This document shows, one piece after another, positions 40,102 to 40,947 of a DNA stretch of 64,000 nucleotides (positions are counted from its first letter, which is position 1; every line of letters starts with the position of its first letter). Both the position numbers and the translations under genes were made by a program. The stretch lies in sequence record PV464739.1; one strand, written 5' to 3'. Below the pieces are notes generated by a model. That model saw nothing but the letters and a program-made list of their open reading frames with translations, made no database searches and was not told where the DNA came from. This DNA is from Escherichia phage RCIP0363.

Positions 40102-40947
40102 TTATTCCGCTTGATCACCGTCTTCGGCATCTTCGTTGGGTTCAACATCGACAAACTCGATGTGGCCCATCTCTTCCAGCTTGCTCAGGTAGGAGCGAAC
40201 GGAAGCGCCAAACAGTTGATCTTTAACTTTTTCGCCCAGCTCATCGATAGACTGCGCCACGCCAACTTCGCCTTCTTTGATCGCCGCCAGAACGCGTCCA
40301 CGGGTGGAATGCTCTTGCGGCTGGCTCAGGCCATTGCCAGTGTAGATGAAGTGGGTTGCTTTTGCACGACGCTGACCGTTTGCCTTTTTAGCAGCCTTAC
40401 GTTCTGCGATGGCTTTGCGACGTTCTTCAGCTTCTTTCTTACGCTGTTCTTTCTGCTTTTCTGCAGCTTCTTTAGCCGCAATCTTAGCAGCTTCACGCTC
40501 TGCCTTGCGTTTCGCTTTAGCTTCTTCTTTGGCCTTCTCTTTTTCGGCCTTCGCTGCGGCACGGGCTTGATCACGCTCTGCTTTCTTAGCAGCAGCCTGT
40601 TCAGCTTTCAGGCGCTTGGCTTCTTCTTTAGCCTTTGCCTTTTCGATTTCTTTTGCTGCTTTAGCGGCTTCACGCTCTGCTTTCTTAGCAGCAGCTTTTT
40701 CTGCACGCTCTTTGGCTTTCTTCGCTGCTTCTTCAGCACGCTTCTGAGCCTTCTCATCAGCAGCCTGCTTGCGTTTCAGCGCAGCTTCTTCACGCTTGGC
40801 TTGTTTTTCCTGCTCACGCTTCTGGCGTTTTTCTTCGGCTTCTTTCTTTTTAGCCAGACGTTTTTCTTCAGCCACGCGACGACGTTCTGCTGCAGCTGCT
40901 TGTTTTTCTTCTTTAGATAATACTTTGATTGCTTCGGCCATGTTCAC
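40102..40947 (-). CDS. highly charged Lys/Ala/Glu-repeat protein with globular acidic C-terminal domain
   Basis: About 200 aa of KAE-rich low-complexity helix-like sequence, then a roughly 80-aa acidic C-terminal domain. Confidence 0.5.
   Translation of the reverse strand: MNMAEAIKVLSKEEKQAAAAERRRVAEEKRLAKKKEAEEKRQKREQEKQAKREEAALKRKQAADEKAQKRAEEAAKKAKERAEKAAAKKAEREAAKAAKEIEKAKAKEEAKRLKAEQAAAKKAERDQARAAAKAEKEKAKEEAKAKRKAEREAAKIAAKEAAEKQKEQRKKEAEERRKAIAERKAAKKANGQRRAKATHFIYTGNGLSQPQEHSTRGRVLAAIKEGEVGVAQSIDELGEKVKDQLFGASVRSYLSKLEEMGHIEFVDVEPNEDAEDGDQAE

Follow-up and report, generated by a model that had tools for sequence, protein, structure and literature searches.

The window analysed here, the whole stretch of 64,000 nt from Escherichia phage RCIP0363 (PV464739.1), carries on its minus strand a gene for a protein of family phrog_4765, situated between the gene for a Dda/RecD-like helicase, from which it is separated by an intergenic gap of 159 nt, and that for a FAD-type protein similar to UDP-galactopyranose mutase (UGM-like; Table 1). 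A preliminary description of this DNA had already noted the adjacent helicase, and its Pfam matches agree with that assignment; the similarity to UGM derives from the HHpred note of the depositors of phage Mansfield. The window belongs to a Wifcevirus, an E. coli myovirus: over 4 kb surrounding the gene it shares 98.7 % identity with Escherichia phage FEC19 and 94–98 % with 27 other records, all of them Wifcevirus myoviruses from E. coli or Shigella, where the gene product is labelled either "hypothetical protein" or "TolA protein".

The preliminary description had assigned 281 residues to the gene product. An open reading frame of this extent does exist on the minus strand when a GTG start is used (40102..40947), but the putative ribosome binding site is separated by only 2 nt from this GTG and by 8 nt from the ATG at 40941. 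The GTG, two codons upstream, is thus too near to the ribosome binding site, and the ATG is almost certainly the start codon, which leaves a product of 279 residues. Additionally, a ribosome binding site is annotated at the equivalent position in phage Mansfield, and the seven Wifcevirus orthologues examined (7/7) are all annotated as genes of 840 nt.

Sequence variation among seven genomes, differing by 2–4 % at the DNA level, was not distributed evenly: 52 of the 56 variable sites occupy the third codon position of the minus-strand frame, and the products differ by only four amino acids, with no change in length even within the low-complexity part. In this frame there were 15–28 synonymous versus 3 non-synonymous substitutions, whereas in the overlapping plus-strand frame of 354 codons there were 2–5 synonymous versus 16–26 non-synonymous ones. 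The phrog_4765 gene is therefore genuine and under strong purifying selection, the codon-position test in the seven genomes excluding that it is a spurious reading frame. Conversely, the substitution pattern supports the earlier view that the antisense frame is spurious; it arises because the complement of GCN, AAR and GAR codons is poor in stops.

A consensus scan for promoters returned three sites, compared to 0.8 expected, and a candidate sigma-70-like promoter lies upstream of the gene. The −35 hexamer of this candidate sits between the arms of a perfect 8-bp inverted repeat (41013–41020 and 41036–41043). Inverted repeats occur upstream of the gene in each of five genera, but none is shared among them, and no conserved operator was found in these upstream regions. 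A strong intrinsic terminator is situated directly after the gene, separating it from the UGM-like gene. The annotations of phages Mansfield and WFC and of Serratia phage MTx also have a terminator in this position, and one was predicted for a Pbunavirus "TolA" ORF (PMC12155105).

Table 1. Features of the phrog_4765 locus, in coordinates of the window
Feature	Coordinates	Strand	Basis
SF1B Dda/RecD-like helicase, upstream neighbour	41101..42285	-	Pfam AAA_30 1.2e-22, UvrD_C_2 3e-13
Candidate sigma-70-like promoter, TTGCTA, 17-nt spacer, CATAAT	40998..41026	-	Consensus match
Putative ribosome binding site, AAGGA	40950..40954	-	Read from the sequence
phrog_4765 coding sequence, 279 aa	40102..40941	-	ORF list, sequence; stop codon 40102-40104
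Predicted Ala/Lys/Glu/Arg-rich helix, residues 10-192	40366..40914	-	AlphaFold2 single-sequence model, composition, K/R periodicity
Basic lead-in RRxKATH (here RRAKATH) and predicted winged-helix-like domain, residues 191-265	40147..40371	-	
Acidic C-terminal tail VEPNEDAEDGDQAE, residues 266-279, net charge -7	40105..40146	-	Sequence
Intrinsic terminator, GACCCACAC-TTGTT-GTGGGTC followed by TTTTTT	40044..40074	-	Scan: 8 pairs, 5 of them G-C
Antisense ORF, 354 aa, not a gene	39856..40920	+	Substitution pattern in 7 genomes
FAD-type protein, 331 aa, UGM-like, phrog_4828, downstream neighbour	38974..39969	-	

The N-terminal helix and the TolA label

Four residues dominate the composition of the protein (A, 23 %; K, 19 %; E, 18 %; R, 9 %), and its first 200 positions bear a net charge of +29. 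AlphaFold2, run on the single sequence, predicts one unbroken helix from residue 10 to residue 192 with a pLDDT of around 90–94; if straight, these 183 residues would span approximately 27 nm. Within the helix, 59 % of the residues are charged and 30 % are alanine, with a net charge of +28, and only seven of the 183 are bulky hydrophobics. We found no 3.5-residue period of alanine or of hydrophobic residues in it, and no heptad seam. Together with the scarcity of bulky hydrophobics, this excludes a canonical coiled coil and makes a single alpha-helix the best description of this region, the N-terminal ca. 185 residues behaving as such. This agrees with the likeness to charged single alpha-helices that had been proposed earlier, along with coiled-coil and single-helix prediction as a check. 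The same preliminary description spoke of Lys/Ala/Glu repeats. This is right with respect to composition, but there are no true repeats, since Tandem Repeats Finder detected a single array, of 15 nt × 2; we thus rejected an origin in tandem repetition, the low complexity being compositional.

The protein resembles ER/K single alpha-helices and designed (EAAAK)n linkers in being highly charged and rich in alanine, in the lack of a hydrophobic seam and in the prediction of one long, uninterrupted helix rich in E, K and R. Lys-to-Glu pairs at i+4 are also enriched (z = 3.1; Glu-to-Lys, z = −0.2). Canonical single alpha-helices are nearly neutral, with charges alternating around the helix, whereas the phrog_4765 helix is strongly positive and carries its basic residues on one face.

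This arrangement is evident from the spacing of lysine and arginine, the spectrum of which has a sharp peak at 3.70 residues, with a power of 3.07 versus 1.70 for the 95th percentile of the maxima from shuffled sequences. Of 13 homologues taken from different genera, 12 have a K/R period of 3.65–3.75 as the top peak, above the 95th percentile of the shuffles, and no consistent phasing of acidic residues or of alanine was found among these 13. On a 3.7-residue helical wheel, one sector of 120° gathers 37 of the 67 Lys/Arg residues (55 %) versus 6 of the 41 Asp/Glu residues (15 %), a pattern that recurs in phages PB1, PA1, MTx, JSF39 and Carpasina. Being phased every ca. 3.7 residues, over half of the basic residues therefore line one third of the helix surface; the spectral peak and the sector counts indicate a continuous basic stripe, with acidic residues and alanine on the other faces. 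For most homologues the helical region has a net charge between +4 and +15, and for one of them it is −8. The helical regions from different genera align better than their shuffled versions (z = 2.9 to 10.1), indicating that the sequence of the helix is inherited beyond its mere composition.

Many GenBank records annotate the family as TolA, which would imply an envelope-spanning homologue of the Tol-Pal type. The origin of the label is apparent from domain II of E. coli TolA, which also has a Lys/Ala/Glu composition and is predicted to form a long helix: in a BLASTP comparison without masking or composition correction, the phage protein matched E. coli TolA with E = 1.6e-32 and 48 % identity over 193 residues. 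However, the match disappeared entirely upon application of SEG and composition-based statistics, so the label can be regarded as a composition artefact. The phage protein also lacks the membrane anchor of TolA, with no transmembrane segment found (maximum Kyte-Doolittle mean over 19 residues of 0.61, versus 2.45 for E. coli TolA), and neither the C-terminal domain III of TolA (Pfam TolA_C) nor any other Pfam family gave a match at E ≤ 0.1. In turn, the 3.7-residue K/R peak of the phage protein is absent from TolA domain II (0.35, versus a threshold of 1.23). Lacking an anchor, domain III, composition-corrected similarity and shared K/R phasing, homology to TolA is refuted and has practically no chance of being correct.

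The C-terminal domain and the extent of the family

A model of the C-terminal domain built from the alignment of 41 family members (pLDDT 90.1, pTM 0.75) contains a strand (residues 197–200), helix H1 (213–222), a second strand (229–231), helices H2 (232–238) and H3 (248–257) and a last strand (261–264). These elements compose a three-helix core in which H2 and H3 form a helix-turn-helix, followed by a beta wing that packs with the N-terminal strand, as expected for a predicted winged-helix fold. Many of the structural matches to the model are winged-helix proteins, including the regulators PerR, Fur, Zur, ArsR, MecI/BlaI, QsrR and SarX, typically with 2.1–2.9 Å over 55–60 residues, as well as the winged helices of RPA32, ORC2, PriA, ScpB, Scc1 and MotA; protein-binding winged helices and an insert of aminopeptidase-2 are also among the top matches. 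With Foldseek against the PDB there was nothing significant (best E = 0.69), and matches in BFVD were confined to the protein's own family. Likewise, Pfam, NCBIfam and PADLOC contained no family for the whole protein, the C-terminal domain or the distant relatives described below, the sole profile signal being a weak PADLOC match to the winged-helix part of Csa3 (E = 0.012), and sequence searches of the PDB with two profiles returned nothing credible. The model thus makes the fold class of the domain clear, and the domain is a member of no named family.

In the alignment of 41 sequences, eight positions reach a conservation of 90 % or more (S212, R214, G227, G245, R249, K254, L255 and H260), and R192, in the basic lead-in, one of 85 %. 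R214 would cap the N-terminus of H1, whereas R249 and K254 are within H3, the presumed recognition helix. The net charge of the winged-helix core has a median of +3 in the family, ranging from −3 to +7, and is −1 in this phage; this non-basic core speaks against binding to DNA, as do the best Foldseek E value and the modest charge of the helix in most homologues.

The core is followed by a short tail, which the model leaves without regular structure and at low confidence. Among 40 family members the tail varies in both sequence and length, and in 34 of them it bears a net negative charge. What the preliminary description called an acidic globular domain should therefore be divided, because the folded part is roughly neutral and the acidity is located in the separate tail of 14 residues.

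The protein matches phrog_4765, a family of unknown function, along residues 3–281 (E = 2.7e-83), and the C-terminal domain alone does so with E = 6.7e-45. A tblastn search with this domain identified 356 phage records, distributed by host into 293 from Pseudomonas, 26 from Escherichia, nine from Serratia, six each from Burkholderia and Xanthomonas, and others from Pantoea, Vibrio and further hosts. Those from Pseudomonas are mostly Pbunavirus, such as PB1, 14-1, E217 and JG024, and orthologues with the same architecture occur in at least seven phage genera. When 1.84 billion representative proteins were searched exhaustively with a profile, only 42 sequences were retrieved at E ≤ 0.001, indicating that the family is small, and a word-indexed protein search returned only fragments of the family. 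In a scan of one genome per bacterial species, the only hit was a 506-bp contig identical to the phage, probably a contamination. The family appears to be confined to phages.

The distant members of the family do not have the Lys/Ala/Glu helix. Their N-terminal domain is an unrelated one that bears the motif YNALTGK..KKF.SR and matches nothing in Pfam; a linker connects it to the same RR...WH domain. The winged-helix domain is thus the module that defines the family, and the N-terminal part can be replaced.

Expression, detection in phage preparations and gene order

The fraction of codons preferred by E. coli is 0.755 for the gene, being similar in the parts coding for the helix (0.758) and for the C-terminal region (0.744). 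None of the other 67 ORFs with 100 aa or more in the window reaches this value; the major head protein has 0.737, and the median for the window is 0.52. The preferred codons were those of general E. coli codon usage. With this codon bias, a promoter-like site and a strong terminator of its own, the gene is probably very highly expressed.

Virion proteomics, suggested in the preliminary description as a check, is already available in published form. In CsCl-purified phage vB_Eco4M-7, the orthologue was detected by mass spectrometry with seven peptides, 25.8 % coverage and a score of 1197.6, higher than those of several tail proteins, and two peptides were found for the orthologue in phage ECML-117 (PMC7048862). 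These data could be taken to indicate a virion component, namely an internal protein, bound to DNA or ejected, that is packaged with the genome. Such a role would be compatible with binding to DNA, and would agree with the annotation as "putative structural protein" in JG024, NH-4 and other Pbunavirus records, a label that reportedly has its probable source in Ceyssens 2009. Nevertheless, the same mass-spectrometry samples also held a helicase, a glyoxalase and a reductase, which are obvious non-structural enzymes (PMC7048862), so detection demonstrates expression and abundance but not a structural role, and could stem from the amount of the protein in the lysate instead of from a defined location. 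Additionally, the gene belongs to the replication block and is distant from the genes for head and tail, and the 31 proteins reported for DNA-free ghosts from Pbunavirus SCUT-S1 do not include the orthologue (PMC6521218). Nor does it appear among the 19 proteins modelled in the cryo-EM structure of E217; gp68 was not found in the text of that paper, and neither the E217 nor the Banzai papers mention the phrog_4765 protein. We consider a place in the virion quite unlikely.

The gene was always found within a replication and nucleotide block in the loci examined. A shared order could be read in Wifcevirus, Pbunavirus, Myosmarvirus, Kylevirus and Carpasinavirus, consisting of a primase gene on the opposite strand, small genes, the Dda/RecD-like helicase, the phrog_4765 gene, the FAD-type protein of ca. 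330 aa, the thymidylate synthase ThyX, a HAD/PNKP-type protein (of the phosphatase-kinase type), an exonuclease and Pol III alpha. We compared 44 loci, which are not independent because many are from Pbunavirus, with identities among the C-terminal domains reaching down to ca. 30 %. The UGM-like gene was immediately downstream in 31 of the 32 loci with room to judge, and the helicase was immediately upstream in 30 of the 34 loci from the clade with the Lys/Ala/Glu helix. In the distant clade there is no helicase beside the gene, whereas the UGM-like gene, with 40–41 % identity to that from the window, is still next downstream and is followed by those for ThyX and HAD/PNKP. The emphasis initially given to the helicase is consequently not supported, since the neighbour conserved across the family is the downstream module of UGM-like flavoprotein, ThyX and HAD/PNKP.

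This module acquires interest from the DNA of Pbunavirus, which contains hypermodified thymidines (about a quarter of T in a TG context) with sugar-derived adducts, a modification to which the 2025 preprint describing it assigned no genes (PMC12191111). The module downstream of the phrog_4765 gene is an obvious candidate for these thymidine-hypermodification genes.

The conserved gene order could also be due to a role of the protein as an adaptor or scaffold. The winged helix would then dock a partner enzyme, either the UGM-like flavoprotein or the Dda-like helicase, and the helix would serve as a rigid spacer or as an electrostatic rail for assembling the enzymes of thymidine hypermodification or replication. 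Besides the constancy of the UGM-like neighbour, which extends to all the distant-clade loci, the two genes have a nearly identical distribution (361 phage records for the UGM-like gene and 356 for phrog_4765). They also overlap by 4 nt in two distant contigs, suggesting coupled translation. A docking function would likewise be in agreement with the protein-binding winged helices and the aminopeptidase-2 insert among the top structural matches, and with a core domain that, in this phage, is neutral to slightly acidic. However, Burkholderia phage BcepF1 is an exception, in which the helicase, phrog_4765 and a polynucleotide kinase gene are present and there is no UGM-like or ThyX gene nearby, and in the window the strong terminator lies between the phrog_4765 and UGM-like genes. 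Moreover, the codon bias and the mass-spectrometry signal suggest amounts far above those of an enzyme partner, and a polyanionic ligand would account more readily for the conserved arginines and lysines, as well as for the basic stripe. On balance, we see an adaptor as the main rival explanation, although a rather unlikely one.

A putative DNA-associated architectural protein

The combination of a predicted winged-helix fold with conserved Arg/Lys residues, a phased basic stripe, an acidic tail in most of the family (34/40), a fixed locus and signs of high expression leads us to favour the reading that the protein is cytoplasmic and abundant and acts as a DNA-associated architectural component of the replication and DNA-modification block of the phage. 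We propose this tentatively, on the basis of sequence and models, and put its chances at slightly below even. The winged helix would dock on DNA through R191, R192, R214, R249 and K254, and the basic stripe would lie along the duplex and neutralise phosphates, spanning ca. 80 bp if the helix were straight. The acidic tail could compete with DNA for the basic surfaces or recruit a partner, as in other acidic-tailed DNA-binding proteins. The conserved order of genes for phrog_4765, UGM-like, ThyX and HAD/PNKP suggests that the substrate would be replicating phage DNA, either being hypermodified or already hypermodified.

Such a design would be that of a linker histone H1 in reverse, in which the long Lys/Ala-rich arm precedes the winged-helix globule. 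Linker histones H1/H5 and the bacterial H1-like Lys/Ala-rich proteins also combine a small winged-helix globule with a long, basic Lys/Ala-rich arm, and the likeness to H1/H5 would extend to the expected abundance and to a presumed role in neutralising charge along DNA. In the phage protein, however, the arm is N-terminal and the order of domains is therefore reversed; besides, its arm is a predicted pre-formed helix that contains glutamate and bears a phased stripe, whereas that of H1 is a Pro-rich disordered tail, and it ends in an acidic tail. There was no Pfam match to Linker_histone (PF00538), and the Foldseek comparison with the globular domain of yeast H1 (1uss) gave E = 4.1 and a TM of 0.27. 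The resemblance to H1 is thus one of analogy, with no homology.

KfrA from IncP plasmids similarly associates a winged helix with a very long helix and is coded among genes for the replication or maintenance of a mobile element. The winged helix of KfrA is at the N-terminus, and the tail that follows forms an oligomerising coiled coil with a hydrophobic seam; in the phrog_4765 protein, in contrast, the helix comes first and has no seam, and KfrA_N gave no Pfam match. Only part of the initial comparison with histone-like or KfrA-like proteins can therefore be maintained: membership is not supported by Pfam, and the order is the reverse of that in KfrA, but association with DNA is plausible and is better founded on the winged-helix-like fold and the basic stripe.

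T4 gp32, T7 gp2.5, bacterial SSB and HMGB1 offer a further parallel, in that a basic or neutral DNA-binding part precedes an acidic tail, with the additional likeness of a gene in the replication block and of probable abundance, although the phrog_4765 protein has neither an OB fold nor an HMG box. We did not find an SSB annotation between positions 30000 and 68355 of the record of the related phage ManiWeber, which raised the idea of an SSB analogue. Since there is no OB fold, this can only be a remote analogy, and binding of the protein to single-stranded DNA is pure conjecture.

A more specific proposal links the architectural role to DNA modification. As a DNA-binding partner of Pbunavirus-like thymidine hypermodification, the protein might deliver the UGM-like, ThyX and HAD/PNKP enzymes to newly made DNA, or else coat or read the hypermodified DNA as a phage chromatin protein; the latter version might involve the Snf2-like translocase encoded by Pbunavirus-like phages. 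In this specific form we regard the proposal as unlikely.

The family is already catalogued, although only as unknown or under mistaken labels ("hypothetical", "TolA", "structural protein"), and both the winged helix and the charged helix are known kinds of parts. What is new is that these two parts are combined, that the basic residues form a phased stripe and that the gene has a conserved link to a module probably for thymidine hypermodification. The phrog_4765 gene is a core gene of Wifcevirus and of Pbunavirus, the latter ranking with the most widely used therapeutic phages of Pseudomonas, and its product is probably one of the most abundant non-structural proteins of 356 sequenced phages; correcting the TolA label clears a recurring false statement from the genome descriptions of therapeutic phages. 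Its fixed position before the UGM-like, ThyX and HAD/PNKP genes is a concrete starting point for finding the genes for thymidine hypermodification in Pbunavirus. If the protein does coat DNA, it would be a phage chromatin protein of an undescribed design, in which a winged helix is joined to a pre-formed helix of 27 nm whose basic stripe is phased.

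Inverted repeat and distant members of the family

Upstream of the gene mislabelled "TolA" there is a perfect 8-bp inverted repeat with its arms separated by 15 nt; the promoter-like site has its -35 hexamer between these arms. The repeat may act as an operator or form a hairpin in the RNA, and no shared counterpart was seen in four other genera.

In the distant members of the family (phrog_4765; proteins P0036 and P0038-P0042), a conserved N-terminal domain of ca. 60 residues (..DL(L/V)ETYNALTGK.IKKF.SR..AE.RV..AMMAA..) takes the place of the Lys/Ala/Glu helix, and matched no family in searches of Pfam and NCBIfam. 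Additionally, 56 residues identical to the E. coli phage protein are encoded on NZ_JPLE01000168.1, a 506-bp contig from the genome assembly of Xanthomonas pisi DSM 18956; in all likelihood the contig is a contaminant there.

Coordinates of the features described
Feature	Coordinates	Strand	Details
Pam3_Gp34-family ORF	28117-28977	minus	286 aa; PF23977, E=4e-86; phrog_2402
Glyoxalase-like	35352-35903	minus	
Short-chain dehydrogenase	36000-36683	minus	
HAD/PNKP-type	36749-37621	minus	
ThyX	37618-38448	minus	
148-aa ORF	38462-38908	minus	between ThyX and UGM-like gene
UGM-like flavoprotein	38974-39969	minus	UDP-galactopyranose-mutase-like
Inverted repeat	41013-41020 / 41036-41043		GCCGCCAG / CTGGCGGC
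Distant member, L017	8001-8552		
Distant member, L019	7736-8587		
Distant member, L020	4166-4759		
Distant member, L021	4402-5034		

Replication block and Pam3_Gp34-family ORF

The replication block of the related phage ManiWeber lies inside a 38-kb region and contains Pol III alpha and epsilon, three helicases/translocases, two primases and a ligase. Neither in record positions 30000-68355, the part covered after the first 30 kb, nor in the corresponding region of the window does any gene carry an annotation as a single-stranded DNA-binding protein.

The Pam3_Gp34-family ORF belongs to a PHROG annotated without function and has the third-highest fraction of E. coli-preferred codons in the window (0.705); its product is therefore probably another abundant protein, with no assigned role.

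Gene run downstream of the gene

The 148-aa ORF starts with what looks like a signal peptide (MKRITGIALAATAILGTMYMEATEAA) and had no Pfam or PHROG matches, an oddity within a nucleotide-metabolism block.

A run of minus-strand genes extends over 35352-39969, and its core order (UGM-like, ThyX, HAD/PNKP) is kept in very distant relatives. Thymidine hypermodification has been reported for Pbunavirus with its genes left unassigned (PMC12191111), and this run is a candidate for the underlying pathway.
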